Shown one piece after another: positions 2,219 through 40,731 of a DNA stretch of 64,000 bases; position 1 is the first letter of the stretch; every line of letters starts with the position of its first letter. The DNA lies in contig OZ250173.1 in the NCBI GenBank assembly GCA_965238075.1, positions 32,001-96,000 on the forward strand, written 5' to 3'. This DNA comes from Candidatus Entotheonellaceae bacterium (GTDB lineage: Bacteria; Tectomicrobia; Entotheonellia; Entotheonellales; Entotheonellaceae). The notes below the pieces were generated by a model. It did no database searches and was not told where the DNA came from. It saw only the letters and a program-made list of their open reading frames with translations. Both the position numbers and the translations under genes were made by a program.

Positions 2219-2250
2219 CCCCCGCTCGCCGCTGCGCTTCATTAGAAATT

Positions 2251-2299
2251 TCTAAGCCTTTTCTCATTCATTTCTCAACGCCCTCTCATTTGGTTTTCA
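2251..2299 (+). promoter_or_regulatory. Phased direct-repeat array (TCTCA-like x5, 11-bp period), probable OmpR-family operator
   Basis: tctaa 2251, tctca 2262, tctca 2273, tctca 2284, tttca 2295 in the intergenic region upstream of the protease. Confidence 0.7.
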
Positions 2300-2398
2300 C
2301 CCCGCGGTGTCATATTCCCCTCCATGGGCAACAGAACCGGCACGCCGGACCAACTGGGCTGGTTGGCCGCATCCAATGCTTTATCAACGGAGGTTGAT

Positions 2399-3922: not shown

Positions 3923-3948
3923 CGGTCCCTGACCTCAGTGGTCGCTGG

Positions 3949-4008
3949 CCCCCTCCCTGCCCTTCCCGTTTCCTCCCTCCTCCGCGGGGAGGGTCAGGGA
4001 GAGGGGGA
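3949..4008. repeat. C-rich/G-rich imperfect palindromic intergenic element
   Basis: cccctccctgcccttccc...gggagggtcagggagagggg can fold into a hairpin after the protease stop. Confidence 0.5.
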
Positions 4009-4127
4009 ACTCCAGATGCCCTGTTACCCGGATTTTGCAGCCCTCGCCCCCGACCTGCCATACTGCGGCCGTGTGACGTCTCCCTCGGAACACGACCGCA
4101 CCCCGCCTTTGTAACGGAGCCTCGAAC

Positions 4128-4613
4128 ATGACATCTGCAAAAACGCTGTATCTGGCGAACCCCTATGGCTTCTCGTCCCAACAGCGCGAGGGACCTTTGG
4201 CAGCGCTTGTGACGGCGCTGGAAGCGCTGGGTGCCGAGGTCTGGGAGCCGTTCGCTCGCAACAACCAGATCGACCGCGCCAGCCCCGGCTGGGCCTACCG
4301 TATCGGACAGGCTGACCTGCGCGACGTGCGCGACGCCGACGGGCTGTTCGCAGTGGTCAACGGCTGCCCCCCGGACGAGGGCGTCATGGTGGAGTTGGGT
4401 ATGGCCATCGCCTGGGCAAAGCCGGTGTTTCTCTTCCGGGACGACTTCCGCCGTTGCACCGACAGCGAGACCTATCCCCTGAACCTGATGCTCTTCACCG
4501 GTCTCCCGCAATCGGGCTGGGAAGCCTACTGGTACGCTTCAATCGACGAGATCGCCGACCCCGGCAAGGCCCTGGCGCGGTGGTTGCGGGACGGCGTAAG
4601 GAATCCACGATGA
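4128..4613 (+). CDS. Nucleoside 2-deoxyribosyltransferase family protein
   Basis: LYLANPYGFS, DLRDVRDAD, DEGVMVELGMAIA, LNLML motifs. Confidence 0.85.
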   Translation: MTSAKTLYLANPYGFSSQQREGPLAALVTALEALGAEVWEPFARNNQIDRASPGWAYRIGQADLRDVRDADGLFAVVNGCPPDEGVMVELGMAIAWAKPVFLFRDDFRRCTDSETYPLNLMLFTGLPQSGWEAYWYASIDEIADPGKALARWLRDGVRNPR

Positions 4614-4849
4614 ACTGCATCCACTGTCGGGGGCGGATGCAGCGTTCGCAAGCGCCCTTTCCTGTCGATCGAAACGGCTATCCCTTGCTGTTCGATACAG
4701 TCCCGGCCCGGGTTTGTGACCAATGCGGTGAGGCGTACTTCGAGAAACGCGCGGTGGACTTAATGCAAAGCGCCATCAAGGGACTGGACCAGCAGGATCG
4801 GCAGCTTGCTGCGGTGCCTGAGGCGACTTGCGGTTGCCAATCTCCGTGA
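4610..4849 (+). CDS. YgiT-type zinc-finger protein
   Basis: MNCIHC...VPARVCDQCGEAYF; ATGA overlap with the upstream stop. Confidence 0.75.
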   Translation: MNCIHCRGRMQRSQAPFPVDRNGYPLLFDTVPARVCDQCGEAYFEKRAVDLMQSAIKGLDQQDRQLAAVPEATCGCQSP

Positions 4850-24762: not shown

Positions 24763-25221
24763 TTAGTAGTCCTTCCAGATCGCCCCTTCCAGAGCGAGCG
24801 TTTCAAGATAGACGCCGATGTAGGAAATCTGTTCGGCATTCAGCACGCCGGCCCACGGCGGCATTTTCAACTTGGGTCTGCCGGCTATGACGATGGACAC
24901 GAACTGGCTGTAGCCGGCCCAGAAGCGGCGCAAGTCCTTGGCATAGCCGCCCCAGCGCGGCGAGCGGCCGTCGGCTTTCACCCCGTGGCACTGCACGCAC
25001 CAGGTAAAGTAGAGCTTGCCCCCTTTGAGGGCCGCGTCGCACTGCCCCGAGTAGGGATTTGACGACGGCACCGGATTTTCAGGGAACGTCAAGATGTTGG
25101 TTCCATCCGTGCACTCCTCGGCGGCCAGCGCATGGATGGGGCCGTGCACCACCAACAAGCTCATCACCACGACAACAGTGGCAAGAAACCGCACCCGAGT
25201 CATGCCCGAGTTGGTTATCAC
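24763..25221 (-). CDS. Monoheme c-type cytochrome
   Basis: Signal peptide, CVQCH, KMPPW distal Met. Confidence 0.9.
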   Translation of the reverse strand: MITNSGMTRVRFLATVVVVMSLLVVHGPIHALAAEECTDGTNILTFPENPVPSSNPYSGQCDAALKGGKLYFTWCVQCHGVKADGRSPRWGGYAKDLRRFWAGYSQFVSIVIAGRPKLKMPPWAGVLNAEQISYIGVYLETLALEGAIWKDY

Positions 25222-25270
25222 GGTTGTTTCTCCTTCCCTTACAGTCCACGAACATCTTGGCAGAAAGCAG

Positions 25271-25316
25271 AAAAAAACGGCGGGGCTGGAAAGCCTTGCG
25301 TTTCCAGCCCCGCCGT
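25271..25316 (-). terminator. Intrinsic terminator after the PQQ dehydrogenase
   Basis: acggcggggctggaaa...tttccagccccgccgt stem with a 7-T tail on the minus strand. Confidence 0.8.
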
Positions 25317-25329
25317 CGTCAGCCCGTGT

Positions 25330-27120
25330 TTACGGGAGCGCGAACGTGACGAGCGCTGCGGACGACTGATAGTTGACCATCTGGTCCCCGAACAGGGCCA
25401 GCACGGCGCCGGCAACGTAGGTACCATGGCCAACTACCATGGATACGTACTGCTTGCCGTCGGCGTCGTAGGAAATGATACCGCCGTTGTGGCCGGTACC
25501 GTTGTTGAAACGCCACAGGACGTCGCCGGTTTCGGCGTCCAACGCCTCTGCCCAACCGTCCATGGTGCCGTTAAACACCAGGCCGCTAGCGGTGGACATC
25601 AGCGCTGAGTGCGGAATGATGTCATAACGCTTGTCCCAGGTCAGCTCGGCCGTCACCGGGTTACGCGCCGTGATGCGTCCGTGCGCCTTTTCGCCAGGCG
25701 GATGCGTGCCCACCCATTCGGCAGCCATGAAGACCTGCGCGAACGGCTCGGTCACGCGGGTCTCGGTACCGAAGGAGATGGTGGTGCCGCCGCCCTCGGG
25801 GGCAACCGTCAGCCACATGCACCATTCGTTGACCACGCGATAGTGCAACCCGGTCTGCGGGTTGTACGTGCCGGCGTTCCAGCTATGGCCGCCATCGATA
25901 GCCGGGCAAACCAACGTGCGCTCGCCAGGCTTGGGCCACAGCATGTTCTCAAACTCGCCCGTTTCCAGATTGAAACCGCTCGTCCAATTTTGGCTCTTCT
26001 GGGCCGGGTACACGTTCACGGGCTTGCCGCTCTTGGGCTCGTGCACGTGGTTGAAACCGTTCTTGCCAGGGTGGAGAAGCAGGGTCTGGCCGTTGTCTTC
26101 GAACAGGACGTACTCGCCAGGAGAGGCGTCGTAGTCGTAGGGATCGCTCGGCGCTTCCTGAAAGTACCAATTCAGCTTGCCGGTATCCAGGTCCAAGGCG
26201 ATCGTGGAGGAGGTGTACAGGTTGTCACCCGGGCGCCAGCCGTTGGTGTTCGGGTCGCGGCACTGGTCACCGCAATAGTCGTAGTCAGGATCCGGATTGC
26301 TCGTGCCCATCAGGATCTGGTTGTTGGCGTAATCAACGGTGCCGGGCTGCCAGGAGCCGCCGCCGCCGTACTTCCACGAGTCACCGCCCCAGGTGGCGAG
26401 GGCTGCGGGGTCGCCGCGGCCCGTGGTGTAGAAGGTCCACTTCAAATCGCCATTCTGAGGATTGAGACCGAAGATGCGCCCCTCAATCGGATACTCGCCG
26501 CCGTTCTGACCGATGACGACCAGGTCGGAATTGACGAAGGTGGCGGAGCCGCTGAAGCCCGCGGTGTCCTTTTGAGAGTTGACCAGCTTGCGGTCCCACA
26601 TGATCTCGGCGGTGTTCTCGTCTATCGCCACCACGCGGCCATCGGCCAGGCCCATGTAGATACGACCGTCGCCAATGGAGGTGCCGCGGGAGTGAGCGAA
26701 AACGGAGCGCGCCACAACGGCCTCGTCCATCTCCGGTGTGAAGGCCCAGATGCGCTCACCCGTCGCGCCGTTGAGCTTCCAGATCGTGGACGGGTTGGCG
26801 GGGAGGTAAACATTGCCGCCGATGGCCAACGGCGTGCTGTGCAAGCCGCCATTACCGCTGCCGGTGGCGCCGCCGGGCAGGAAGATCCACGCCGGGCGGA
26901 GTTGGGACACGTTGTCCTTGGTGATCTGATCCAGCGGGCTGTGCCGCCAAGCCTTGTCGGTGGTGCGATGGTACGCGCACCAGTTCTCAGCCGGGCAGTT
27001 CCGGATGCTGTCAGCGCTCGTGCTGCCGTGGCTCATCGCCATCGCAGCCGGAGCCACAAACAGGCCGGCAATCGCCAGCAACACCAATGCCTTACCAAGT
27101 CTTTTCATTCCCTTGCACAT
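25330..27120 (-). CDS. Divergent PQQ-dependent dehydrogenase (methanol/ethanol superfamily)
   Basis: Signal peptide, SPLDQITKDNV, RPGDNLYTSS, DPYDYD, W-motif propeller repeats, DGKQYV. Confidence 0.92.
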   Translation of the reverse strand: MCKGMKRLGKALVLLAIAGLFVAPAAMAMSHGSTSADSIRNCPAENWCAYHRTTDKAWRHSPLDQITKDNVSQLRPAWIFLPGGATGSGNGGLHSTPLAIGGNVYLPANPSTIWKLNGATGERIWAFTPEMDEAVVARSVFAHSRGTSIGDGRIYMGLADGRVVAIDENTAEIMWDRKLVNSQKDTAGFSGSATFVNSDLVVIGQNGGEYPIEGRIFGLNPQNGDLKWTFYTTGRGDPAALATWGGDSWKYGGGGSWQPGTVDYANNQILMGTSNPDPDYDYCGDQCRDPNTNGWRPGDNLYTSSTIALDLDTGKLNWYFQEAPSDPYDYDASPGEYVLFEDNGQTLLLHPGKNGFNHVHEPKSGKPVNVYPAQKSQNWTSGFNLETGEFENMLWPKPGERTLVCPAIDGGHSWNAGTYNPQTGLHYRVVNEWCMWLTVAPEGGGTTISFGTETRVTEPFAQVFMAAEWVGTHPPGEKAHGRITARNPVTAELTWDKRYDIIPHSALMSTASGLVFNGTMDGWAEALDAETGDVLWRFNNGTGHNGGIISYDADGKQYVSMVVGHGTYVAGAVLALFGDQMVNYQSSAALVTFALP

Positions 27121-27550
27121 AATCTCTCCTTAGTGCAAATACCAAATCCATTTGTCGCCGAATTTCCTCCCCGTGCCGGAGAGGCGTCTCAACGATACTC
27201 GAATCCAATAGCCAAGCCCGACCTCAGTGTGAGTAGACTGCGGTTTATGTTTTGTCTATTGGACAGGTCGAACGTTTATAATCATCCCACCAGCCAACCG
27301 TGTCAAGCTCGTTTCCGCTTTGCCAGCCCAATCTGTGCGGTTGTTGTAATGTTAACCTCCGCGCCTATGGGCAAGTCACAGTTGTGGGATACAGGCAGTA
27401 GGCTATGATGTCCAATTGTCCCGACGCGATTCGTTCAGCCGGGTGCGTCCTTTATCTGGACCTATTGATCCGCAAGGAAAAGCCAAGCTACCCGCAACGG
27501 ATCTTCTGAGGATTATTCAACGCTGGTAGCCCTTTGAATGGATGTGAATT

Positions 27551-28798
27551 ATGAAAAGTGCAAAGATTATCTACGACATCATTTGGATGACAATCGCGAT
27601 TCTACTCGCCTCCTTCCTCACGGTCGTCTTTGATCTGCATGAGTGGCTTATTCAGTACACGCGCCCCTTCGAATCCTGGGAGCTCGATGAGACTCCCTTC
27701 TTCCTCTTTTTTGTGGCCCTGTCCTGTGCTTGGTTTGCCTATCGACGCTGCCGAGAATTGATCACGGAGATCGCCGAGCGCAGGCAGATCCAGAAGGCGC
27801 TCACGGACAGTGAAACCCGCTACCGTACCCTGGTAGAAGCCTCGGCTCAGGGCATTTATATATACCAGGAAGGCACCATACGGTTTGCAAACCGGGCGCT
27901 GGGCCGGCTGTTTGGCTGTGAAAGCGCCGAAGCGTTAATCGGGGAGCACGTGGAACAGCTCTACTCGCCTCATGAAGAGGCGCGTCTGACAGCCTACAAC
28001 ACTGCCGCTTTGGCGGGCCACGCCGAGCCGCGGCGTTACGAATGGCACGGCGTGCATCGGGACGGCGCCATGCTCTGGCTCGAAAGTCTTACGCTGCGCA
28101 TCACGTGGGACGGCGTCCCGGCCCTGATGGTTACGGTGCTGGACATTACGGAGCGTCGAGGCCAGGAACAGGAACGACGCAAGATCGCTTACGACATCCA
28201 CGACGGCATCGCGCAGTTGATGGTGGGCGCCCAGCACCATCTGGAGGCGTTCGATCACCTCTGGCGCGATGACGCTTCACTGGCCGAGGATCAGTTGGGC
28301 CGCGGCCGTGCTAAGCTCCGCCAGGCGATCGTCGAAACACGACGGCTGATGACTCAACTGCGCCCGGTCAGCCTCGAAACCCTGGGTTTGATTCCTGCCG
28401 TGCAGCAGTATCTGAACGAATTGGGCAAAGACGCTGGCTGGGAAATCGACTATCACGCTGAGGTCGCCGCCCTGAATCTCTCCCCGGACGGGGAAACCGC
28501 CCTTTTCCGCATTCTGCAAGAGGCGCTGACGAATGCCTGGAAGCATGCGCAGACGCCAAGGGTGCGTCTCAGCCTGCACACCGAAGGCGAAAAAGACGAT
28601 CTGCTGGTTGTATGTGTCCAAGATTGGGGAATAGGTTTCGAGCCCGCCCGGATCCACTCCGATGCCCAAGGGATCGGCCTTATGGGCATGCGTGAGCGCT
28701 CTCGACAACTGGGTGGGGTATGCAGCATCGAGAGTCGCCCCGGCCGCGGCACGACTGTGCGGCTGCGGATTCCCCTGCAGCATGGAGAAGCCACATGA
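27551..28798 (+). CDS. PAS-domain sensor histidine kinase (HisKA_3 type)
   Basis: Two TMs, PAS, IAYDIHDGIAQ, QEALTNAWKHA, DWGIGF, GLMGMRER. Confidence 0.92.
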   Translation: MKSAKIIYDIIWMTIAILLASFLTVVFDLHEWLIQYTRPFESWELDETPFFLFFVALSCAWFAYRRCRELITEIAERRQIQKALTDSETRYRTLVEASAQGIYIYQEGTIRFANRALGRLFGCESAEALIGEHVEQLYSPHEEARLTAYNTAALAGHAEPRRYEWHGVHRDGAMLWLESLTLRITWDGVPALMVTVLDITERRGQEQERRKIAYDIHDGIAQLMVGAQHHLEAFDHLWRDDASLAEDQLGRGRAKLRQAIVETRRLMTQLRPVSLETLGLIPAVQQYLNELGKDAGWEIDYHAEVAALNLSPDGETALFRILQEALTNAWKHAQTPRVRLSLHTEGEKDDLLVVCVQDWGIGFEPARIHSDAQGIGLMGMRERSRQLGGVCSIESRPGRGTTVRLRIPLQHGEAT

Positions 28799-29460
28799 GT
28801 CTGCGGGAACAGCGCCGCATTCAGGTCGTGATAGCCGACGATCACCCGGTGGTGCGGGAAGGCTTGCGGAGCGTCCTTTTGACGGCTGCGGACATGGAGG
28901 TTATCGGCGAGGCCGGTACGGGAGCGGAGGCGGTGGCGCAAGCGCAGGCGCTGCAGCCGGAGGTCATGCTGCTCGACATCCGCATGCCCGATGGGAATGG
29001 CCTGGCAGTCCTGAATCAGATCAAGGCGGTGTCGCCCGATACCAGCGTCATCATGGTGACCATGCACGACAATCCTGATTACATTTCCCGCGCCGTTGCA
29101 GCTGGTGCCGCCGGGTACGTTCTCAAGGAGGCAAATCGCCACGATCTCCTCACGGCAATTCGCACGGTGCTCAATCCATCGGCGGCGCCCACCCCTGTCC
29201 TGTTGAGCAAATCTCAACGGGTGCCGTTCAACGCCGCACAGACGGCGGCGCCGTCCGGCCCCACGTCGCTTAGCTCGGTCGAACGCGAATTGCTGTTGCT
29301 GCTAGCGGATGGGCTCAGCAATAAAGAAATCAGCTTGCAGTTGCGCTGCAGCTTGGGCACCGTCAAGAATTATCTCCAGCATATTTTCACCACCCTTCAG
29401 GTTTCAGACCGCACCCGCGCAGTTGTAGAAGCTATCCGCCTCGGGCTCATTGATCCGTGA
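28795..29460 (+). CDS. NarL/LuxR-family response regulator
   Basis: ADDHPVVREG, LDIRMP, GLSNKEI, TVKNY. Confidence 0.93.
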   Translation: MSLREQRRIQVVIADDHPVVREGLRSVLLTAADMEVIGEAGTGAEAVAQAQALQPEVMLLDIRMPDGNGLAVLNQIKAVSPDTSVIMVTMHDNPDYISRAVAAGAAGYVLKEANRHDLLTAIRTVLNPSAAPTPVLLSKSQRVPFNAAQTAAPSGPTSLSSVERELLLLLADGLSNKEISLQLRCSLGTVKNYLQHIFTTLQVSDRTRAVVEAIRLGLIDP

Positions 29461-29810: not shown

Positions 29811-30563
29811 ATGAGCGAACGTTTGACTGACATACGGGATGCGAACTTCGGGTACGGCCGCACAAGTGTCTTGCAAGGCGTGCAATTCTCCCTTGCGGCG
29901 GGAGATTTCGTCGGCCTTGTCGGGCCTAACGGCGCGGGCAAGACCACCTTGTTGCGCGGCTTGTTGGGCCTGATCAAACCGCAGCGTGGAGAGAGGCGGA
30001 TCAACCCCCCTGACGGCGCTGCCGACGTGGTATTCGGCTATGTGCCGCAGGAAAAGGCGGTTGATCCGTTTTTCCCGTTGTCGGTGCTCGACGTGGTGCT
30101 CATGGGGCGCTACCGGCTGCTCGGGCCGGGCCGGCGTCCGACGCTGGTGGATCGGCGTGCGGCACTGGCGTGTCTCGGCCACGTGCAACTTGAGCATCTT
30201 GCTGACGCGTCCTTTCAGGATTTGTCAGGCGGTCAGAAACAGCGGGTCCTTCTGGCCCGTGCTTTGGCCACCGAGCCGCACGTTCTGGTGCTCGATGAAC
30301 CAACCAGCGCCATGGACCTGGCAGCTGAAAAACGGCTCATGGCCGTGATTAGCGAGCAGCACGAGGCCCGAGGGCTGACGGTCATGCTGGCAACACACGA
30401 CTTGAACCTGATCGGTCGCTACGCTTCCAGAATTGCCCTTGTCGCGGGGGGGCGGGTTATCAGCGGCTCGCCAACGGAACTTTTGGAGACCCGGCAACTC
30501 AGTGAGGTATACGGCGTCGAGGTGCAGGTGCACGAAGTCCAGGGTCGGCGGTTAATCGTCTGA
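29811..30563 (+). CDS. Metal ABC transporter ATP-binding protein (ZnuC/MntA-like)
   Basis: GPNGAGKT, GYVPQ, LSGGQKQRV, LDEP, THDL. Confidence 0.93.
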   Translation: MSERLTDIRDANFGYGRTSVLQGVQFSLAAGDFVGLVGPNGAGKTTLLRGLLGLIKPQRGERRINPPDGAADVVFGYVPQEKAVDPFFPLSVLDVVLMGRYRLLGPGRRPTLVDRRAALACLGHVQLEHLADASFQDLSGGQKQRVLLARALATEPHVLVLDEPTSAMDLAAEKRLMAVISEQHEARGLTVMLATHDLNLIGRYASRIALVAGGRVISGSPTELLETRQLSEVYGVEVQVHEVQGRRLIV

Positions 30564-30583: not shown

Positions 30584-32713
30584 ATGTGGGAAATGCTTTC
30601 CTACCCCTTCTTCCAATCGGCGCTCATCGCCGGCACCTTGTCCGCGGCCATGTGTGCTCTGGTGGGGGTGTACGTCCTGCTCAAGCGCATCGTGTTCGTC
30701 GGCATTGCGCTGGCCCAGCTTGCTTCACTGGGTGTGGCGGTGGCTTTGCTTATCGACGTGCACCCGATGATCATGGCCCTGGTGACGACCTTGACGGGTG
30801 TGGCCTGTTTTGCATTGACCCGTACCGGCCAGCGCGTTCCGCAAGAGGGCGTGATCGGTGCCAGCTACGTGATGGCGGCGGCCCTCGGCATCATTTGCGT
30901 GGCCAAGAATCCCGTGGGCGAGGCGCGCAATCTGAAGGTGCTGTTCGGCAACATCCTGTCCGTTCACACGGGGGAGATGGTGGCCCTCGCCGTGCTTTTG
31001 GCGGTGCTGGCCATCGTACACGTGGTTTTCTACAAGGAGTTCCTGTTCGTATCTTTCGACCCGGAAACCGCCCAGGCTCAGGGAATCAACGTCCGCGGGT
31101 GGGACCTTCTGCTGTACCTCACCATCGGTCTGGCGATTGCGTTTTCCATTCACTCAATGGGAGTGTTACTCGTGTTTGCACTACTGCTTGTTCCAGCCAT
31201 GACGGCGCGCCTTGTGGCGCACAGGATGATGGCTTTGTTTGCCCTGGCCATTGCTTTCGGGGTTGTCGCAGTTCCGCTCGGTCTGTATCTGGCTGTGCGC
31301 ATCGACCTGCCGACCGGCACCGCGGTGGCCGGCACCTGCGTGGTGATGCTGTTGGCCGTCCTGACGGGTCGCGGTTTGTATCGCAGTGTTGGACGCTTGG
31401 CGTCGGGGGCGGCGGTGCTGATGCTGGTATTTAGCTTGGCAATACCGGGTTCCGTTTCCGCCCAGGAGACGGATGTTGAACAGCGTCTGCAGGAGTTGCA
31501 GCAGGAAATACAAGAGCTTCGTAACAGCCTGCGCGGCCAGCAGTTGCGGCTGCCGGGCGGCTTGCTGCTCAACCCGGAAATGCGCGTCGAAGGCAACTTC
31601 CAAGGCAATCGAGGCTGGGGCTTGCAACGAAACGCCGAGTACGAGGGTTTCCCCAACAACCGCTTCAATATCCGTGAGGTCGAACTCGGCTTCCGGGCCT
31701 CGGTGGACCCCTTCGCGGTTCTGGAAACGGTTATCAGCGCCCAGCGTCTGGTGGAAATCGAATTTGAGGACGGGGAAGAGGAATTGCCCCGCGAACTCGA
31801 TTCCGAAGTGGAATTCGAGGAGGCGCACCTGACCTTTGCGCGGCTGCCGCTGCGCTTGCGCGGCAAGCTGGGTCTCATGCGCACCAGCTTCGGTGAGTAC
31901 AACGACGATGACCCCGATGAGTTCCCGCAAATCGACCCGCCAAACGTTATCGTGCATCTCTATGGCGAGGAAGGCGAGGGCTGGAAGGAACCCGGCCTCA
32001 ACCTGAACTACCAGTTCGCCAGCCCGTTTTCCGAACGCATGACGCACGTCATCTGGTTTGGGCTCTACAGCGGCGAAAATGGGACTGCCTTTCACGGCGG
32101 GCAGCTTGACAAGCCGGTTTGGTTCACGCGGGCTGAGTTGTTCTACGAAGTGGCGCCGCGGGCAGGTCTGGAACTCGGCCTCAGTTTTGCTGCCGGGAAG
32201 CGCTTCGAATGCTTTGAACCTGGTGCACCCTTGGAATGTTTTGAGGGCGATGACGGCGCCGAAATGCTCGCCGGGGAATTCGATACCATGCTCATGAACG
32301 TCCACTTCGAGTTCGATTGGCGGCCGCCGTTGTACAGCTTGGAGCACAGTTTCGGCTTCTTGAGCGAAATTTTTTATTCCAGCGTGGAGCGCACGGACGG
32401 CACGCTGAATCAGTGGGGTGGTTACGCACTGTTTCAGTACGGCATCAATGCCAATTTGGCCCTTGGCGCCCGTCTCGACGTGGCTGAATGCCCCGGATTT
32501 TCTTCGTCGTTGTGCGTCGTCATGGAGAGCGACACACCCATCGAGGACCGCTCCGAGTGGGCCTTCTCACCCATCCTCACCTACAACCCGAGCCCCTTTC
32601 TGACCCTGCGGGCGCAATACAAGCACACGCAGCGAAATTACGCCGAGGATTCCCAAGAAATCCTCCTCCAGGCCCTGTTCATCATCGGCTACGAGCGTTC
32701 GGAACCGTTCTAG
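30584..32713 (+). CDS. Fusion: metal ABC permease (ZnuB-like, about aa 1-265) + signal-peptide-like linker + acidic outer-membrane porin-like domain
   Basis: LVGVYVLLKR, LFGNILSV, SFDPETAQAQG, GVLLVFALLLVPA; then SVSA-QE, coiled coil, EVELGFRASVDPF, amphipathic strands, C-terminal Phe; no internal stop. Confidence 0.85.
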   Translation: MWEMLSYPFFQSALIAGTLSAAMCALVGVYVLLKRIVFVGIALAQLASLGVAVALLIDVHPMIMALVTTLTGVACFALTRTGQRVPQEGVIGASYVMAAALGIICVAKNPVGEARNLKVLFGNILSVHTGEMVALAVLLAVLAIVHVVFYKEFLFVSFDPETAQAQGINVRGWDLLLYLTIGLAIAFSIHSMGVLLVFALLLVPAMTARLVAHRMMALFALAIAFGVVAVPLGLYLAVRIDLPTGTAVAGTCVVMLLAVLTGRGLYRSVGRLASGAAVLMLVFSLAIPGSVSAQETDVEQRLQELQQEIQELRNSLRGQQLRLPGGLLLNPEMRVEGNFQGNRGWGLQRNAEYEGFPNNRFNIREVELGFRASVDPFAVLETVISAQRLVEIEFEDGEEELPRELDSEVEFEEAHLTFARLPLRLRGKLGLMRTSFGEYNDDDPDEFPQIDPPNVIVHLYGEEGEGWKEPGLNLNYQFASPFSERMTHVIWFGLYSGENGTAFHGGQLDKPVWFTRAELFYEVAPRAGLELGLSFAAGKRFECFEPGAPLECFEGDDGAEMLAGEFDTMLMNVHFEFDWRPPLYSLEHSFGFLSEIFYSSVERTDGTLNQWGGYALFQYGINANLALGARLDVAECPGFSSSLCVVMESDTPIEDRSEWAFSPILTYNPSPFLTLRAQYKHTQRNYAEDSQEILLQALFIIGYERSEPF

Positions 32714-32725
32714 GAGGAAGTACCA

Positions 32726-33688
32726 GTGACCAGGTTTTCTGTAACTCTACGTTCGGCAGTGTTGGGGGTTCTGACCCTGGCATTCGTGTTGACCTCCGGC
32801 GGTTGGGCCGCTGAGCACGGACAGTCCGCGTTCCTGGTTGGGAGCACCACCGACTTTACCGCCATTGCCAAGGAGATCGGTGGGGATCGGGTGCAGGTCT
32901 ACGCGCCGCTGCCCGGGTACCAGGAGCCCGAGCTGTACATCGAAGAGGTGTTTCCGTCCTGGATCATCCAGGCGTCGCGGGCGGACGGCTATATCCGCAT
33001 CGGGCTTTTCGCCGACGTATGGGCGGATATCTTGGTTATCGATGCGCGCAATCCGCTCATCTATCCCGGCGCGCCCGGACACGTGGACGCCTCGCAAGGC
33101 ATCCACGTGCTGGAAGTCCCGACCGGCCCGCTGGACCGCTCCCGTGGCGAGATTCACCTGCAAGGCAACCCGCATTACCTGCTGGACCCGCTGAACGCCA
33201 AGATCGTTGCGGACAGCATCCTGCGGGCGCTGGTGGCTATGTCGCCCGAGGAGGCGGATTTCTTCACGGCCAACACCGAGGACTTCAAGCGCCGCATCGA
33301 CGAGGCCATGGAGCGCTGGCAGGACATGGCCGCGCCCTTGCGGGGCAAGAAGCTGGCGGCTTATCACCGCACCTGGACCTACCTGTTGCGGCGTTTCGGC
33401 CTGGATATCGTGGGTTACGTGGAGCCCAAGCCCGGCATTGCGCCGTCGCCGCTGGAAATCCGCAATCTGGTCAGGGCGATGGTGCGGGACAACGTTCGCC
33501 TGATCATCCACGCGCCGGTCTATCACCCGCGCACGCCGCGCGCCGTGGCTCGTCAGGTATTGGGTCGGATAGGCGAGCCCGTCACGGTGCTGAAGCTACC
33601 GGCGCACGTCGGCGGGGTGCCCGAAGCGGACAGTTATTTTGCCCTCTTCGATTACATCTTGACGACGTTGAACGAGGTCCTCAATTGA
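32726..33688 (+). CDS. Metal ABC transporter substrate-binding protein (ZnuA/TroA-like)
   Basis: IAKEIGGDRV, GNPHYLLDP, YHRTWTY, EPKPGIAPS; the usual DPH motif reads EPE. Confidence 0.9.
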   Translation: MTRFSVTLRSAVLGVLTLAFVLTSGGWAAEHGQSAFLVGSTTDFTAIAKEIGGDRVQVYAPLPGYQEPELYIEEVFPSWIIQASRADGYIRIGLFADVWADILVIDARNPLIYPGAPGHVDASQGIHVLEVPTGPLDRSRGEIHLQGNPHYLLDPLNAKIVADSILRALVAMSPEEADFFTANTEDFKRRIDEAMERWQDMAAPLRGKKLAAYHRTWTYLLRRFGLDIVGYVEPKPGIAPSPLEIRNLVRAMVRDNVRLIIHAPVYHPRTPRAVARQVLGRIGEPVTVLKLPAHVGGVPEADSYFALFDYILTTLNEVLN

Positions 33689-33774: not shown

Positions 33775-34587
33775 ATGCGTATCACCGGACGGAGTCTCGT
33801 GCCGCTGGGCGCAGTCATCATGCTGCTGTTCTGCGCCGCCACGGCTGCCGCGCTCGAGGTCCGGCTCATCTATGTGGGCAGCACCGACGAGGCGGCATGG
33901 TTCGGCGTCTTGCAGGGTCAGCATGAGGCCAACATCCAGGGGCGTTTTCTCGACCAGACCTATACCGTGGAAGCGATGACGCCGGAGGCGTTGTCACAGG
34001 CGAATCAGCAAGCCGCTGCGATAATCGCAGCGGGCGACGCATCAGCGGCACAAAGCCTGAGCGAGGCGATGCCCGGCGTCGCCGTGTTTAACGTGACGGC
34101 TGACGACGACGCCCTGCGCCAGGCTTGCACCGCGAATCTGTTGCACGTTCCACCCAGCAACGCCATGAAGGCAGATGCGGTGGCGCAGTGGCTGCAGAAG
34201 AACCCCGACGCCAGCGTGGAGGCGCGTGCCTGGCATCCCAAATTCGTCAAGTATGCTGCTCGTGACCTGAACAAGCGCTTCCTGAAGGTTCAGGGCGTTG
34301 CGATGAACGACGACGCTTGGGCCGGCTGGGCTGCAGTGCGTATGGTCGCCGAGGCCGTCATACGGACGCAGTCGACGGACCCTTCTGCCCTGCTTTCCTT
34401 CGTGAAGACTGAGATTGCCTTCGACGGGCAAAAGGGCATCTCCCATACCTTCCGTGATACCGGTCAACTGCGGCAGCGGCTCCTCATTGTTGACGACGCT
34501 GGCAAGCTGACCGGCGAAGCCCCGGTGCGGGGTGTGGCCGACACGACGGACCTCGACAGTCTCGGCATACCCTCGTGCCAGCGGTGA
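33775..34587 (+). CDS. PQQ-ADH-system ABC substrate-binding-like protein (LutA/PedA1-like, short)
   Basis: EANIQGRFL, DDALR..C..NLLH..PS..MKADAVAQW, LNKRF, WAAVRMVAEAV, DGQKG, FR..GQLRQ. Confidence 0.75.
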   Translation: MRITGRSLVPLGAVIMLLFCAATAAALEVRLIYVGSTDEAAWFGVLQGQHEANIQGRFLDQTYTVEAMTPEALSQANQQAAAIIAAGDASAAQSLSEAMPGVAVFNVTADDDALRQACTANLLHVPPSNAMKADAVAQWLQKNPDASVEARAWHPKFVKYAARDLNKRFLKVQGVAMNDDAWAGWAAVRMVAEAVIRTQSTDPSALLSFVKTEIAFDGQKGISHTFRDTGQLRQRLLIVDDAGKLTGEAPVRGVADTTDLDSLGIPSCQR

Positions 34588-34606
34588 AGGTTTCCCGGTT
34601 GGCAAG

Positions 34607-34686
34607 AGCCTGCCCTGGCCCCCGGATTAGGTCCGGGGCAGGCTTCGATCCGGGGTCAGTGGATTCCGGGTCAAGCCCGGAATGAC
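34607..34686 (-). repeat. Composite REP-like element
   Basis: 34660-34686 is the exact reverse complement of 15055-15081, preceded by a cccggattaggtccggggcaggcttc unit. Confidence 0.8.
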
Positions 34687-34746
34687 GATGACGGTTTTAC
34701 TGGCCACCAACCGCTACTGACTAATCACTACTTTCACGGGAAGGAC

Positions 34747-35712
34747 ATGACGTTTATGCGACCGATAGCTTTTGCAATGCTCGTGTTTCTCATCCTGGCC
34801 GTCGGGACTGCTGCAGCTGAGCCGACTTACCGCGTTTTTGTCACCAATGAGCGCGACGATTCCGTGTCGGTCATTGATAGCCGCACCAACGAGGTAGAGG
34901 CCACCATCGACGTTGGCGACCGCCCGCGTGGTATTGGCTTTTCTCCTGACCGGGCTTACGTTTATGTGGCGCTCGGCGAGGAAAACGCCATCGGCGTCAT
35001 CGATGCGCGCACCCTCGAGGTTGTCAAGAAGGTATCCGCGGGTTCCGACCCCGAGGCATTCGCCGTGCACCCGAACGGCAACATCTACCTGTCCAATGAA
35101 GACGCGAACCTCGCCACGGTCCTCAATCCGGTCTCTGGAGACATTCTGGCCGAAATCCCAGTCGGCATCGAGCCCGAAGGCGTGGGGGTGTCGCCGGACG
35201 GCTCACGGGTCATGGTGACCAGCGAGAGCACCTTCATGGTGCACGTCATTGCCGTGCCGGAGCACGAGGTAGTGGCCAACGTGTTAGTGGGTGCTCGCCC
35301 GCGAGAGGTGACGTTTTCGACAGATGGCAAATGGGCCTATGTGACCAGCGAGATCAGCGGCCAGGTGAGCAAGATCGACGTGGCGGCCAATGCCGTAGTG
35401 CTGCAGGTGCGGCTGGACGTTCCCAAGGCCAAGCCCAAGGGCGTAGTGGTCAGCCCGGATCAGAGAACCCTGTACGTCTCCACTGGCAGTGGCAACATGA
35501 TTGCGGCGTTGAACGCCGATACGCTTGAGCTGCTGGGCACCGTCAAGGTTGGCAAGCGGGTCTGGGGTATCGCACTGTCGCGGGACGGCTCCCGCCTGTA
35601 CACCTGCAATGGTGTCGATGACACGGTGTCAGTCGTGGATACCGCCAGCCTGACCGTCGTTGCCACCATTCAGGTAGGTACGGCGCCCTGGGGTGTGGTC
35701 ATTGATGATTGA
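34747..35712 (+). CDS. PQQ-catabolism-associated YVTN beta-propeller protein (LutB/PedA2-like)
   Basis: VFVTNE, VGDRPRG, GSDPEAF, VGIEPEG, VGKRVWG, VGTAPWGV repeats. Confidence 0.88.
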   Translation: MTFMRPIAFAMLVFLILAVGTAAAEPTYRVFVTNERDDSVSVIDSRTNEVEATIDVGDRPRGIGFSPDRAYVYVALGEENAIGVIDARTLEVVKKVSAGSDPEAFAVHPNGNIYLSNEDANLATVLNPVSGDILAEIPVGIEPEGVGVSPDGSRVMVTSESTFMVHVIAVPEHEVVANVLVGARPREVTFSTDGKWAYVTSEISGQVSKIDVAANAVVLQVRLDVPKAKPKGVVVSPDQRTLYVSTGSGNMIAALNADTLELLGTVKVGKRVWGIALSRDGSRLYTCNGVDDTVSVVDTASLTVVATIQVGTAPWGVVIDD

Positions 35713-35731
35713 TTGAAGGGTTCCTTGGCCC

Positions 35732-35786
35732 AAACAAAAGCGGGGCAGCAGAGGAGGGATGACTCTGCTGCCCCGCTTCTGTGTTT
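35732..35786. terminator. Bidirectional terminator
   Basis: aagcggggcagcagag...ctctgctgccccgctt between convergent genes. Confidence 0.75.
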
Positions 35787-35798
35787 ATGGCCCGACGA

Positions 35799-36257
35799 TT
35801 AAGAACTGTCGTGACGGGCGATCTTGGCCCGCAGCTCCTCGGCCAGGGTGGCGTCAAGTTCCTCCAGGATCACCAGATGTGACCTGGCCTCCGACACCTT
35901 GCCAACCGTCAACAGGGCTTCGCCCATGTACTCATGCGCCTCCGCCAAGTCCGGCTGCAGGTCGAGGGCCTTCCGGTACAGCTCGATGGCGCGTTCGAAC
36001 TGGCCCATGCGGCGGAACGAGTAGGCCATGTTCGTGTAGGCCATGGCATGGGTCGGGTCCGCGGCAATCACCTTCTCGAAAGCCTCGACGGCCTGGCGAA
36101 ATTTGCCAGCCTTAAGGAGGTCGTAACCCGTTTCGTAGTCCGTCGGCTGAGCCTGGGGCGCCAGCGCGCTGCCCTCGGTCATGCCCTCATCGGCAAGGGT
36201 CAATCCCGGGACCACGAGCAGAAAACCACACATCAGCGCAAGCCCTATCTGCCGCAT
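35799..36257 (-). CDS. Exported TPR protein
   Basis: Signal peptide; AYTNMAYSFR, YRKAL, AHEYMGEA. Confidence 0.85.
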   Translation of the reverse strand: MRQIGLALMCGFLLVVPGLTLADEGMTEGSALAPQAQPTDYETGYDLLKAGKFRQAVEAFEKVIAADPTHAMAYTNMAYSFRRMGQFERAIELYRKALDLQPDLAEAHEYMGEALLTVGKVSEARSHLVILEELDATLAEELRAKIARHDSS

Positions 36258-36285
36258 GGATTTGCCTCCTCTTTTCCAAACTCCG

Positions 36286-37446
36286 TTAGGATCTATCCTC
36301 GCTCCAGGGCGGCGTGTACGAAACGCCGTATTGCGACATCAACTCGGAAACCTGCTGTTCTGCCGCCAGTTCGCTGAGAACGCCATTGAGGATTTCACGC
36401 AGGTCATAGTCATTCTTGCGCACCCCAATGGCGACGTTCCACAGCAGGTTCGGGTCTGATACATACCCATCCACCGGCTTTACGGTGCTATCGGGGCGGT
36501 TTTTGAGCCACCAATCCATTTCCAGTGCGGGCACCAGGGCCACCTCCATATCCCCCTTCTGCACGGCCTGCAGGGCGTCGTGGCTGGATGCAAACGGTCT
36601 GCAGGCGTAACCTGATTGGAGAAGGACCTTTTCCGCCTGTGACTTTAGCGGCACCGCCGTCGTCCTGTCGGCCAACTCCATCACGTCCTGCACCTCGGAT
36701 GCCTGCTCGCCGCGTACCAAGGTATAGCCGGTACCGAAATAGGGCTCCGTCAGGATAACACGGTCGATGGCCTCTTGTTGAACCGGCACGCCCATGAACA
36801 TATCGCAGCGTTTCTGGACCAGCGAGAGGCTCAGGGCGCCCAGCACGCCGCCGCGCCGCGACGTGGCCCAGAAATACTGTGTCTTCAGCCCCATGCGGCC
36901 AGCGATTTCCTCGGCGAGCGCAATGTCAAAGCCGCCTGGCGAACTCTTGTCGGAGGCGGGCAACTGATTCGGCATGGCACAAACCGTGAGGACCCCCTTC
37001 TCTCTGGCTTCGTAGAGAGCGCCCTTATATTCGGTGCGCAGGTAGGCAATGATGGACCAGATGTTCATGGGTTGAACACGGGCGCCAAAAGCCCCCATCG
37101 GCGTGCCCGGGCGGCCGGCGACGATGGTTGCAAAAATGTCGGTATCCGATCCGCCCCAGGTCCAGACTCCATCCTGCAGATTGGGCCCCTTGGCGCCCTT
37201 GCCGCGGGTGCCGTGGCAGATGGAGCAATAACGGTGGAACAGGTTGTATCCTTTTTTGATCGCTTCCGGGTGGCCGTGTAGGGGGTTGGTAATATCCTGC
37301 GCCTGAACGGACGCGGGTGTGGACAAGAACAGTCCAAGCATCCCCGCGCAAAGCAGAACGCCCAAGCTCCCCGCGGTGAGACCCCAACGCATGATCATGG
37401 ATGCCAGATGCCCCGGCCATCTCTTTCCAGAAACCCGCTGCCTCAT
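36286..37446 (-). CDS. Cytochrome c + MxaJ/XoxJ-like substrate-binding domain fusion
   Basis: CSICH and GRPGTPM, then LTVCA...NQLP...RCDMFMGVP...TEPYF...IGVRKND. Confidence 0.8.
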   Translation of the reverse strand: MRQRVSGKRWPGHLASMIMRWGLTAGSLGVLLCAGMLGLFLSTPASVQAQDITNPLHGHPEAIKKGYNLFHRYCSICHGTRGKGAKGPNLQDGVWTWGGSDTDIFATIVAGRPGTPMGAFGARVQPMNIWSIIAYLRTEYKGALYEAREKGVLTVCAMPNQLPASDKSSPGGFDIALAEEIAGRMGLKTQYFWATSRRGGVLGALSLSLVQKRCDMFMGVPVQQEAIDRVILTEPYFGTGYTLVRGEQASEVQDVMELADRTTAVPLKSQAEKVLLQSGYACRPFASSHDALQAVQKGDMEVALVPALEMDWWLKNRPDSTVKPVDGYVSDPNLLWNVAIGVRKNDYDLREILNGVLSELAAEQQVSELMSQYGVSYTPPWSEDRS

Positions 37447-37577
37447 ATCCAGACTCCCTCCTGTGTACGTGGTCTTCGACGTTCCCGACTGTGGCATGTT
37501 GGCTCTGCCAAGGTTCCCCTGCGAGCCAGCGCCTTTTACAGGAGTCGGCCAAGGGTGTCAAGAGCCGACGCCGCGCG

Positions 37578-38180
37578 TCAGATCGTGCGTTTGAAGCCAA
37601 CTTTGCCGATGAACTTCCCTGCCACCATCAGAACGCCGTTGACCGTCTTGAGCGGCAGGATGGGAAGGCGCTTGGGCGTCGGCCCGCCGACCACCCTCGC
37701 CATGTTCGTCGGGTCATATTCCGAGTAGTGGCACGGGCACTTGACGGTTCGCGTCGCTTTCATCCACAGAGCCACCGGACAACCGGCATGCGTGCAGACT
37801 GCGGAATAAGCGACAATGCCGTCCGCCGAATGGGGTTGCGTGGACCCCGCGATTTCTTCGGGCTTGAAGCGCACTAGCATCACTTTGTTGAGGCGCGAGC
37901 CGTTACGCACCACCTTGTTGACCGGCTCGAACGGGTAAGCAAACACCTGGGGCCCGCCCAGCGGGATGTCCTCGGGCTTGACGACTTCACCCATGTTGTC
38001 GCCCTGCGCGAAAACAAACTGATCGTTCTCCTGCGGACGCATTTTCCGGGGCTCCTTGCTGCGCGCCGCGGCCAGTTTCCAGCCGCTCAAAGCAAATCCT
38101 GCACCCATCAGCATTTTCAGCAGTATCCGGCGTTCGAACAGTCGTTTTACCCATAAGCCGGTTCGGCGTATTTCTGCCAC
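37578..38180 (-). CDS. Rieske 2Fe-2S protein with Tat-like signal
   Basis: CTHAGC, CPCHYS, GPTPKRLP; ERRILLK N-terminus; GTG start with GAGGAG. Confidence 0.9.
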   Translation of the reverse strand: MAEIRRTGLWVKRLFERRILLKMLMGAGFALSGWKLAAARSKEPRKMRPQENDQFVFAQGDNMGEVVKPEDIPLGGPQVFAYPFEPVNKVVRNGSRLNKVMLVRFKPEEIAGSTQPHSADGIVAYSAVCTHAGCPVALWMKATRTVKCPCHYSEYDPTNMARVVGGPTPKRLPILPLKTVNGVLMVAGKFIGKVGFKRTI

Positions 38181-38353
38181 GCGTGACTCCTCGACATTGT
38201 GTAGTTTAAGGTGACACCTTGAACAAGGCCCTCTGGCGCCACCAAAGGCGGCCCGAAACGCCATGGCTACAACAAACGAGCAATGACTGTCAAGACCAAA
38301 GTCCGCATGAAGGGAGACGTTTGGGGGCGTGTTTTAGCAACCCCATATTGCAT

Positions 38354-38382
38354 TTGACTCTACCTAAAACCATCCCTATGCT
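38354..38382 (+). promoter_or_regulatory. Putative sigma70 promoter
   Basis: TTGACT-17 nt-TATGCT. Confidence 0.55.
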
Positions 38383-38489
38383 ACGCTCCGCCAAAGGCGC
38401 TCGAAGCGCGATGGCTACTGTTGTTCCTGAGGCGATGTCATACGTTCTGCGTCTCACGATCCATGACACGGCAAGGAGGATGGCAGGTT

Positions 38490-39812
38490 ATGGAGTTCAA
38501 TATATTCGAGCATTTCAAAGGTATGGGCATCACGTCCAATGGGCCCACGAATCACTACGAGCAAGGGGCAAATTACTTCTCCAGCGGGCATCTCGGCGCT
38601 CGCGTTCGCGATCGGCTCGATAGCTTCGCGGAGCGGGTCAACATGCCGCGCCGCAGTTTCATGAAGACGGTCTGCGGCTTTACGGGCGCGATGCTGGCGG
38701 TGAACCAGGCGACCGGCATGCGCTTCTTTGACGTTTCCGAGGCCGAGGCCGTGGAACAAGCGGCGGCGCACGAGAAGAACGCGCTGCTGAAATCCCACCT
38801 CAACTACGTCGTCGACCAGCACACGCACATCTGCTGGCGCCGGGACGGCTTTGTGGCCGGCGTGAACACCTCCGAAAAGGGTATGTGGTTCGTCAATCTC
38901 CTGGACGGGCTGGGCAAGGCCATGGGCCTGGAGAAGGGCATCCAGGACATGACCGTGGAGAATTACGGCAAGCTCATCCTTGAAGAGAGCGACACCACGG
39001 TTGGCATCTTCAACCCGTTCGGCTTCCGCGAGGACTACGGCGGCCAGGATATGATCCCCATCGAGGAACAGGTAGAGGTTCGCAACCGCTGGCCCAACCG
39101 CACCATCATGATGGGCGGCGGCCTGACGCCCAACCAGGGACTGGAATTCACCCTCGACCGGCTGCAGATGTTCGTCGAGGACTACCAGATCTCCGGCCTC
39201 AAGCTCTACACGTTTGATTCCACCCCGCAACGCGGCTGGTGGTTCGACGATGTGAAGCTGGCCTATCCGATCTGGGAAAAGTGCCGTGAACTCGGGATCA
39301 AAAACATCGGCTGCCACAAGGGTATCCCCTTCGGGCAATTCATGGCGCGCTACGCCCACGCCGAGGATTTCGATGCCGTCGCCGATGATTTCACGGACAT
39401 GAACTGGATCGCGTTCCACTCCGCGTGGCCCTATCACGGCGAGTTGGCCGCGCTGAAGTCTTTCAAGCCGCAGCGCAACAATCTGTTCTGCGAACTGGGA
39501 TCGACGTTCGCGGCGACCGTCACCAGCCGTCCGCTGGACTGCGCTCACGTGCTCGGAACCCTGCTGCGCGACCTCGGTTCTGATGCCGTGCTGTGGGGCA
39601 CCGACTCCGTGCTGTGGGGCAACCCGCAGTGGCAGATCGAGGCCTTCCGGCGCTTCCGTATCCCCGATGAGTTGGTCGAAGGGTACGGTTACCCGCAGTT
39701 GACGGATGAGCTCAAGGCCAAGGTGTTGGGCACCAACGCCGCGCGCTTGTGGGGGCTCGAGACCGCTTCTAACACGCCTCCGGCCGAACCGTCCAGGATC
39801 GTAGCCGCGTAG
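38490..39812 (+). CDS. Amidohydrolase-2 family protein with internal Tat-like motif
   Basis: RRSFMK, DQHTH, GLKLY, CHKG, FHSAWP, LWGTDS, GNPQWQI. Confidence 0.85.
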   Translation: MEFNIFEHFKGMGITSNGPTNHYEQGANYFSSGHLGARVRDRLDSFAERVNMPRRSFMKTVCGFTGAMLAVNQATGMRFFDVSEAEAVEQAAAHEKNALLKSHLNYVVDQHTHICWRRDGFVAGVNTSEKGMWFVNLLDGLGKAMGLEKGIQDMTVENYGKLILEESDTTVGIFNPFGFREDYGGQDMIPIEEQVEVRNRWPNRTIMMGGGLTPNQGLEFTLDRLQMFVEDYQISGLKLYTFDSTPQRGWWFDDVKLAYPIWEKCRELGIKNIGCHKGIPFGQFMARYAHAEDFDAVADDFTDMNWIAFHSAWPYHGELAALKSFKPQRNNLFCELGSTFAATVTSRPLDCAHVLGTLLRDLGSDAVLWGTDSVLWGNPQWQIEAFRRFRIPDELVEGYGYPQLTDELKAKVLGTNAARLWGLETASNTPPAEPSRIVAA

Positions 39813-39884
39813 GACAAACCGGGCCAGGGATGTTGGAACACGCATCCCTGGCCTTTGCTTTGGCCTTTCGGCAGGAGTCCGGAT

Positions 39885-40172
39885 ATGCCTGTCTATGAAT
39901 ACGAATGCAGTCCGTGCTTGGTCATCTATCAAGTGTTGCAAGGGATGAACGACGAGCCTTTGCAGACGTGTCAGAAGTGTTCCGGCTCCGTGCGGCGCGT
40001 CATGTCGGCGGCAAATCTGAACACGCGCAACTACTCCAGCCCAACCGAGGCGAAGTACGCCAAGATGAGCCACACCGAGGAAATGGCGCGCGAGAAGGAA
40101 TTGCAGCGCGACTACGAAACCGTCTGGTTGCCGCCGCAGGTGAAGCACGATCCTTGGGATCACGATCACTAA
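39885..40172 (+). CDS. FmdB-family zinc-ribbon protein
   Basis: MPVYEYECSPC...CQKC...RRVMS. Confidence 0.85.
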   Translation: MPVYEYECSPCLVIYQVLQGMNDEPLQTCQKCSGSVRRVMSAANLNTRNYSSPTEAKYAKMSHTEEMAREKELQRDYETVWLPPQVKHDPWDHDH

Positions 40173-40202
40173 GTCCATCCACATACGAAGGAGTTACGGT
40201 TC

Positions 40203-40574
40203 ATGGTACGCTTGGGCACCACCATCGCTCGCTGGAATGCAGGATATGTCGCGCTGGTGCTGTTCATGGGCTATGGTCTGTTCGGTTTGTCGTCAATGGT
40301 TGATGCCCAGGAATGCGGCAAGGTGCACGAGGTTATCGTGACGCACATATTTACGCCGAAGGATTTGGTCCTGGAGGCGGGCGACTGCGTGCGGTTCGTC
40401 AACATTCACGAGATCGAGCACAGCGCCGTTGCCAGAACGCGGACGTTCAACACCGGCACGCTGATGCCGAGGAGCAGTTCGCTGATTCGGTTCGACAAGC
40501 CGGGCGAGTTGCCCTACGTGTGCGGTTTGCATCCGCCGATGATTGGAACCATTACTGTCAAGTCGAAGCCGTAA
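40203..40574 (+). CDS. Cupredoxin (amicyanin/plastocyanin-like)
   Basis: FTPKDL, EHS, YVCGLHPPMIGTI type-1 Cu ligands. Confidence 0.88.
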   Translation: MVRLGTTIARWNAGYVALVLFMGYGLFGLSSMVDAQECGKVHEVIVTHIFTPKDLVLEAGDCVRFVNIHEIEHSAVARTRTFNTGTLMPRSSSLIRFDKPGELPYVCGLHPPMIGTITVKSKP

Positions 40575-40731
40575 CCGGCCTCCCGCCCCCTGCACGTGCC
40601 GGCACGTTTTTCCCGCCATCGAAGCCGGCACCGTATTTTTCTTGACTCGCCAATCTAAAGGGTGTTACCAACGCAAGCCTTGGTATGACAGCTTTTCACA
40701 ATCCAATGGCAACTGATAAAGGAGGGGTTCC

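Follow-up and report, generated by a model that had tools for sequence, protein, structure and literature searches.

How can one uninterrupted reading frame encode both an inner-membrane permease and an outer-membrane porin, and how would the two halves reach different membranes? The question arises from an open reading frame (ORF) of 709 codons (30584..32713) in an ATP-binding cassette (ABC) transporter operon of Candidatus Entotheonellaceae bacterium, a sponge-associated, Entotheonella-like organism (GCA_965238075.1, contig OZ250173.1). Throughout, the window is the 64,000-nucleotide (nt) stretch of this contig that was analysed, and positions are counted within it. We found that the fusion is real, conserved and widespread and is missed by current annotation. 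Comparison among relatives further suggests, with a probability that we put at about 0.7, that the ORF encodes a natural two-membrane polyprotein, which signal peptidase I (SPase I) would cut after Ala293 to give two products for two membranes.

A conserved fusion of a permease with a porin

Exploring the ORF, we found a single frame open from ATG to TAG, as an earlier sequence-only reading of this locus had it, and the strings quoted there (RGLYRSVGR, LASGAAVLMLVFSLAI, PGSVSA and QETDVEQR) all lie where that reading placed them; the Ala293 codon is GCC (31460-31462) and QETDVEQR follows it. The ORF starts 20 nt past the stop codon of the ATPase gene and the binding-protein gene begins 12 nt downstream of it, giving the gene order ATPase, permease-porin, binding protein; the ATG of the fused ORF is preceded by GGAGAG at a distance of 8 nt, and the GTG start of the binding-protein gene by AGGAGG. 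The stretch is present as a whole or in part in 20 of the 24 sequencing runs listed, and contigs of four of these were compared with the window: run X1, which covers the full stretch with zero differences and may be the window's own source, run X3 from a separate metagenome study, and the RNA libraries X7 and X13. The sequence-only reading had named a stop codon or an indel at the junction as evidence that would count against it; contigs of all four runs cross the junction (31350-31470) with substitutions only, zero stops and zero indels, and the sole indel anywhere in the compared runs belongs to X3, which has 9 nt inserted in frame after 32247. Scanning a genome collection revealed eight loci, five of which (L002-L006, from Tectimicrobiota or uncultured Ca. 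Entotheonella) carry the same in-frame fusion, while the two genes are split in L007 and L008, so that homologues, which the reading had proposed to sort into fused and split, occur in both states. An assembly or sequencing artefact was ruled out, as the frame is kept by the contigs of four runs and by five independent genomes. A protein search with the C-terminal 416 residues gave 48 matches of near that length, 12 of which have a precomputed ABC-3 domain, and longer matches (729-783 residues), all of which (81/81) carry PF00950. The fused form is retained across at least 99 sequence clusters, down to ~35% identity in the barrel. Where the fused relatives are named at source, they are called only metal, zinc or iron-chelate ABC permease, and the organisms named among them are Methylomirabilales, Methylomirabilia, Rokubacteria and one metagenome-assembled genome labelled Anaerolineae.

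The first half is an ABC-3 permease (PF00950; residues 6-259, 163.5 bits against a cut-off of 20.1, E 8.9e-48), and the fused ORF is the sole ABC-3 permease in the 3.35-Mb genome. It aligns to residues 11-259 of PsaC (7kyp) and to residues 9-251 of the 260 of Escherichia coli ZnuB (9oko); the alignment stops near window residue ~257, and the ZnuB chain ends 9 residues later. The solved PsaC and ZnuB are dimers with nine transmembrane helices and a cytosolic coupling helix after the fifth, as described in PMC8346216 and PMC12236471. A hydropathy scan revealed segments that match these helices, with a compatible charge distribution, and an extra one at residues 269-287 (Kyte-Doolittle 19-residue peak 1.96), beyond the C-terminus of the solved ZnuB and PsaC chains. 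Reading the topology from hydropathy, the charge rule and the alignment to solved structures, we infer that segment 269-287 should run from inside to outside and leave PGSVSA in the periplasm, because nine helices are followed by an Arg-rich, acid-free loop.

The permease resembles cluster A-I metal importers (ZnuABC, PsaABC and AztABCD) in gene order, in its ABC-3 alignment over ~250 residues and in having a partner binding protein of the ZnuA fold. It differs from them in its replaced metal-site residues, in the porin gene that the operon includes and that is continuous with the permease gene, and in scores below all NCBIfam equivalog cut-offs (AztB 132 against 280, ZnuB 77 against 284 and SloB 95 against 460 bits). 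Asp46 and His50 of PsaC, a metal site according to PMC8346216, align to Ile41 and Gln45 of the window permease (30704-30718). The nearest solved relative of the binding protein is Synechocystis ZnuA (E 1.3e-15), whose first metal-binding His (in DPH) aligns to E-P-E, with the other two His kept. Given that both the Asp/His site of the permease and the first His of the binding protein are replaced, the transporter substrate may be neither Zn nor Mn.

The second half is named by neither Pfam (E <= 0.01) nor NCBIfam (nothing at E <= 0.1), and its profile retrieved only coiled-coil noise from PDB sequences (best E 0.012). AlphaFold2 modelling of this domain from a 38-sequence alignment gave a helix at domain residues 2-29 followed by 16 beta strands (mean predicted local distance difference test score 86.9, predicted template modelling score 0.83), and Foldseek matched the model to the porins OmpM1, OprP, chitoporin, OprB and DcaP (E ~1e-11 to 1e-10), so that by its predicted fold the domain is a 16-strand porin-type barrel. 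The short coiled coil and beta-rich domain ending in Phe that were proposed from the sequence thus find their counterpart in this helix, the strands and Phe709, and the failure to form a barrel that was to tell against the proposal is not what the model returned. The chain ends ...GYERSEPF and the family consensus PF. A C-terminal aromatic residue is the beta-signal recognised by the machinery of beta-barrel assembly (BAM), and the same genome encodes BamA (655 bits) as well as SPase I (122 and 109 bits). The barrel is strongly acidic (71 D+E against 32 K+R, isoelectric point 4.4), as are related barrels (median net charge -36.5 over 134), and for this reason cation selectivity is a natural guess. 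Porins of the matched fold are trimers, and by analogy this one probably is too.

Among known porins, OprP and OprO of Pseudomonas aeruginosa differ from the window barrel in sequence (12% identity, no Pfam Porin_O_P match listed) and are arginine-lined anion channels by entry title, unlike the acidic barrel here. DcaP of Acinetobacter baumannii and OmpM1 of Veillonella parvula share with the predicted mature product an N-terminal periplasmic coiled coil in front of the barrel; the window porin differs in having no S-layer homology domain, a helix of 28 residues and no sequence similarity to them. At the position of this helix, relatives carry longer heptad-like helices or Pro-rich spacers, and its length varies to the point that it is sometimes absent. 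The family BBP2 (PF07642, OmpL-like putative porin-2; cut-off 26.2 bits) has no match in the window domain at E <= 0.01, whereas distant relatives of the domain approach or reach the cut-off: five of 36 scanned match at E <= 0.01 and one exceeds it (P0065, 26.6 bits), as does the protein of locus L009 (30.4 bits). The latter is a remote homologue of the porin from a cyanobacterium (L009, 2988-5981) that lies beside an ammonium transporter and an OprB-family porin. Since no ABC transporter is near it, linkage to a metal importer is not general to the porin family. The window genome has a single copy of the porin domain (1 match). One loop of the barrel (32190-32270) is a hypervariable acidic insert, reading ...ECFEGDDGAEM... 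in the window; relatives (P0010-P0017, P0004, P0015) have 10-60 residues of Asp, Asn, Gly and Glu at this position, and the 9-nt insertion of X3 matches three extra Asp in P0003.

The junction and its split relatives

Between the two halves the sequence-only reading had described a complete tripartite signal-peptide pattern ending at Ala293. The pattern is there: the segment has a basic n-region, an h-region within the usual span of ~7-16 residues, a helix breaker and small residues at -3 and -1, and its location is internal (residues 263-293), not N-terminal. It goes beyond chance, because the same n-h-c segment stands at the same place in 96/96 fused relatives examined. These 96 are the sequences with a DLPTG-type anchor among 99 fused ones considered, and a rule-based site finder, which accepts only small residues at -3 and -1, with a preference for Ala, found a candidate site in all of them. 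Residue -1 is Ala in 94/96, and residue -3 is Ala in 61, Val in 28, Thr in four and Gly in three. Three features that are not built into the finder accompany these residues: Pro or Gly at -4 to -6 (90/96), Gln at +1 (78/96) and a free position -2, where 14 residue types occur. The n-region loop has 1-5 Lys or Arg in the 96 relatives and is devoid of Asp and Glu in 83 of the 86 distinct junctions listed. A strict cleavage motif was detected in 81/87 junctions as against 80/655 hydrophobic segments elsewhere in these proteins. The rule that SPase I cleaves where the residues at -3 and -1 are small is stated in PMC9360617. The Gln that comes first after the predicted cut suggests that the mature N-terminus would be pyroglutamate, and such termini are described for SPase I substrates of Bacteroidetes in PMC5837995.

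The split orthologues suggest where the segment came from. In L007 (Ca. E. palauensis), the stop codon of znuB is at 4773, preceded by ...TARGLYRLTRRQGAFRLL, and the porin ORF follows ~26 nt later in another frame, beginning with a canonical N-terminal signal peptide, MDRQGPAAMIILILAICLIASNGAWA-Q (...ASNGAWA↓QT...). In L008 (Ca. Entotheonella sp. TSY1, 1622-4456), znuB and the porin gene are ~3 kb apart, with genes for a histidine kinase and a sigma-54-type response regulator in between. In the fused forms the ZnuB tail (..RGLYR..) is retained, followed by a segment that aligns with the signal peptide of the split form at A-x-A↓Q and then by the coiled coil. Because it aligns in position with the N-terminal signal peptide of the split orthologues, the internal segment is, as judged by this comparison, the porin's own retained signal peptide. 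The fusion would have originated when the stretch between a znuB-type gene and a porin gene downstream of it, from the stop codon through the spacer to the initial few porin codons, was lost.

To follow the two states, we used a tree of 39 barrel domains picked by hand from 478 family members (17 fused, 17 split, 5 unlabelled), which includes P0050 but none of the other 80 longer matches. On this tree, the fused or split state changed at least five times, at least four of these being forced by well-supported branches, and fused lineages surround the split Entotheonella clade. Such recurrent switching is expected if both states give the same mature products. Both halves are under purifying selection in 5/5 comparisons, with ratios of nonsynonymous to synonymous substitution (dN/dS) of 0.06-0.11 (permease) and 0.14-0.22 (barrel). 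Against L005 and L006, the synonymous divergence of the barrel (0.74-0.99) is 3-4x that of the permease (0.21-0.26), with a step near the junction, and values of 0.2 to 0.65 were obtained for neighbouring genes. Recombination may have exchanged the porin half.

Proposed processing of the fused chain and its alternatives

We propose that nine permease helices are inserted during translation and that the permease part finishes on the cytoplasmic side, at the Arg-rich loop 263-271; segment 272-287 would then enter the Sec translocon with its N-terminus in and its C-terminus out and start the export of the next 416 residues, and SPase I would cut after Ala293 at the periplasmic face. The permease product (residues 1-293, 30.6 kDa) would keep the former signal peptide as a C-terminal tenth helix and work with its two operon partners, the ZnuC-like ATPase encoded upstream and the ZnuA-like binding protein encoded downstream. 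The acidic product (residues 294-709, 47.5 kDa, isoelectric point 4.4) would be carried to the BAM complex and become a 16-strand outer-membrane porin, probably trimeric and cation-selective, with a short periplasmic helix. The SPase I-processed polyprotein of the sequence-only reading thereby gains comparative support from the homologous signal peptide, the c-region, the topology and the SPase I and BamA genes, the cut itself being deduced from these. That cleavage would fix the stoichiometry of the products, as was also suggested, is unsupported, for permeases of the ZnuB/PsaC type are dimers and porins of the matched fold trimers.

Several considerations weigh against this proposal. The cleavage step is deduced from comparison among relatives. 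The tallies at -3 and -1 are partly built into the site finder, and the fused sequences are related, so that the counts are not independent events. Conservation of the n- and h-regions is equally expected for an uncleaved export anchor, and only the c-region discriminates. The split labels of metagenome proteins rest on gene calls, L007 and L008 being the ones verified in DNA. The contigs of the RNA libraries X7 and X13 neither prove transcription nor reveal internal starts.

The weight thus put on the c-region bears directly on the alternative that the segment is a signal anchor and the chain stays whole, the permease in the inner membrane being linked by a helix to a barrel in or near the outer one. 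Such a chain fits the conserved n- and h-regions, suits the predicted helix directly after the hydrophobic segment, and resembles importers of the OpuA/GlnPQ type, in which a binding domain is fused to the permease through an extra helix that is kept uncleaved, a likeness that we counted in its favour. We nevertheless consider it unlikely. An anchor would have no use for a c-region that keeps the SPase I pattern while position -2 is free, and the h-region has merely ~16 residues before Pro-Gly. Over 95 sequences, the hydrophobic segment stands 29-136 residues (median 47) away from the first barrel motif, and P0028 is entirely without the coiled coil, which disfavours the tether across the periplasm through a coiled coil that had been offered beside cleavage. 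The linker in the window, ~38 residues of which 28 are helical, would span ~8 nm, and the periplasm is usually wider than that. Moreover, the split orthologues (L007, L008) function with a free porin, and dimers of the permease and trimers of the porin do not match in number.

Nor does initiation within the permease gene explain the locus well. On this account, the porin would be made from GTG 31415, ATG 31421 or TTG 31397, and the long product would be a permease with a useless tail. In-frame TTG, GTG and ATG codons do stand at codons 272, 278 and 280, and a run of G (31405-31409) might act as a weak Shine-Dalgarno sequence, but the five closest fused genomes do not conserve these features: ATG 31421, whose use had been named as a result that would overturn the cleavage proposal, is codon 280 here and CTG in L003, GCC GGA ACT (L004) and GCA GGA ACT (L005) stand in place of the G-run, and TTG 31397 is CTG or GTG in L004-L006. 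Distant fused forms are without Met in the segment, a product from codon 278 or 280 would miss the basic n-region and half of the h-region, the genuine starts of the operon have GGAGAG or AGGAGG upstream, and, as there is no stop codon, ribosomes on the permease would still make the fusion; we regard such a start as quite improbable. Least credible of all is a neutral or decaying fusion, a tolerated read-through whose porin part would be misrouted or degraded and non-functional. Recurrent fusion and fission could mean selective indifference, and source annotations see the permease alone; yet the barrel is under purifying selection and predicted to fold with high confidence, the fused porin is retained to low identity in many clusters, and the genome has no second porin copy.

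Cleavage after Ala293 thus stays our preferred account, and an adaptive extension of it appears doubtful: with permease and porin made at a single Sec translocon, an unusual cation would be taken up by a route that is spatially coupled across both membranes. That the former signal peptide acts as a functional tenth helix, with a fraction of the chains perhaps left uncleaved as a transient inter-membrane tether, is likewise a tentative idea that we hold to be improbable. The unusual substrate is suggested by the absence of the Asp/His Mn/Zn site from the permease, the Glu in place of the first His of the binding protein, and the island of pyrroloquinoline quinone (PQQ) dehydrogenases around the operon, which hints at Ca2+ or a lanthanide.

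The nearest known precedent is the cytochrome b-c1 precursor FbcH of Bradyrhizobium, in which a polytopic inner-membrane protein, an internal signal peptide and an exported protein reportedly form one chain that is resolved into two. The window ORF likewise combines a polytopic protein, an internal signal peptide and an exported protein. It differs from FbcH in that its first product is an ABC importer permease and its second a barrel bound for the outer membrane, whereas the second product of FbcH reportedly stays anchored in the inner membrane within the same complex. The fusion adds a further form to the rare cases in which one gene encodes two membrane proteins; full-text searches, with subscription journals largely outside their coverage, found no account of a permease-porin or internal-signal-peptide fusion. 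If the chain is cut as proposed, it would be a natural bacterial polyprotein with halves in different membranes, and its signal peptide would be not discarded but kept as an extra helix of the upstream protein. It would then offer a ready system for how SPase I handles internal sites after a polytopic domain, for how a barrel released late from the nascent chain of a membrane protein reaches BAM, and for whether co-synthesis couples the outer- and inner-membrane steps of metal uptake. For annotation, the consequence is that the porin is invisible in at least 99 clusters, from Tectomicrobia, Methylomirabilia and Rokubacteria-type genomes, that are called permease only where they are named at all. 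The acidic porin and the atypical sites of the permease and the binding protein mark, as far as sequence comparison goes, a putative uncharacterised metal-uptake subfamily in sponge symbionts.

The operon and its quinoprotein surroundings

The features of the fused ORF, its operon and the neighbouring genes are collected in Table 1.

Table 1. Positions of the fused ORF and its parts, of its operon partners and of genes nearby, in window coordinates
Feature	Position	Strand	Remarks
Fused ORF, 709 residues	30584..32713	+	ATG start, TAG stop; permease, internal signal peptide, coiled coil, porin barrel
ZnuC-like ATPase of the ABC transporter, first in the operon	29811..30563	+	Pfam ABC_tran E 6.5e-27; syntenic in L002-L008
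Permease domain ABC-3 (ZnuB/PsaC-type), residues 6-259, read as nine transmembrane helices	30599..31360	+	PF00950
n-region RGLYRSVGR, residues 263-271, predicted cytoplasmic	31370..31396	+	Three Arg, zero acidic residues
h-region LASGAAVLMLVFSLAI, residues 272-287, tenth hydrophobic segment, predicted to run in to out	31397..31444	+	Hydropathy
c-region PGSVSA, residues 288-293, predicted SPase I site after Ala293	31445..31462	+	Val at -3, Ala at -1, Pro/Gly at -6/-5
Predicted periplasmic helix, coiled-coil-like, residues 295-322	31466..31549	+	AlphaFold2 helix 2-29 of the C-terminal domain
Predicted 16-strand beta-barrel porin domain, residues 332-702	31577..32689	+	Followed by tail SEPF, last residue Phe709
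Periplasmic metal-binding protein of the ZnuA family, bearing a signal peptide of its own, last in the operon	32726..33688	+	PF01297 E 5.7e-37
PedF-like cytochrome c	24763-25221	-	
PQQ methanol/ethanol-family dehydrogenase	25330-27120	-	Contains ...DPYDYDAS...
Histidine kinase with LuxR-type regulator	27551-29460		
PQQ-system binding protein	33775-34587		
YVTN propeller	34747-35712		
Fused periplasmic protein: cytochrome c(L)-like (residues 69-162) and MoxJ-like binding-protein domain (residues 169-392)	36286-37497	-	
PQQ methanol/ethanol-family dehydrogenase	40732-42510	+	704 bits

The transporter operon lies inside a quinoprotein island that occupies 24763-29460 and 33775-42510 of the window. 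The first of the two dehydrogenases carries, within DPYDYDAS, a D-Y-D motif, which we take to be a mark of lanthanide-dependent enzymes.

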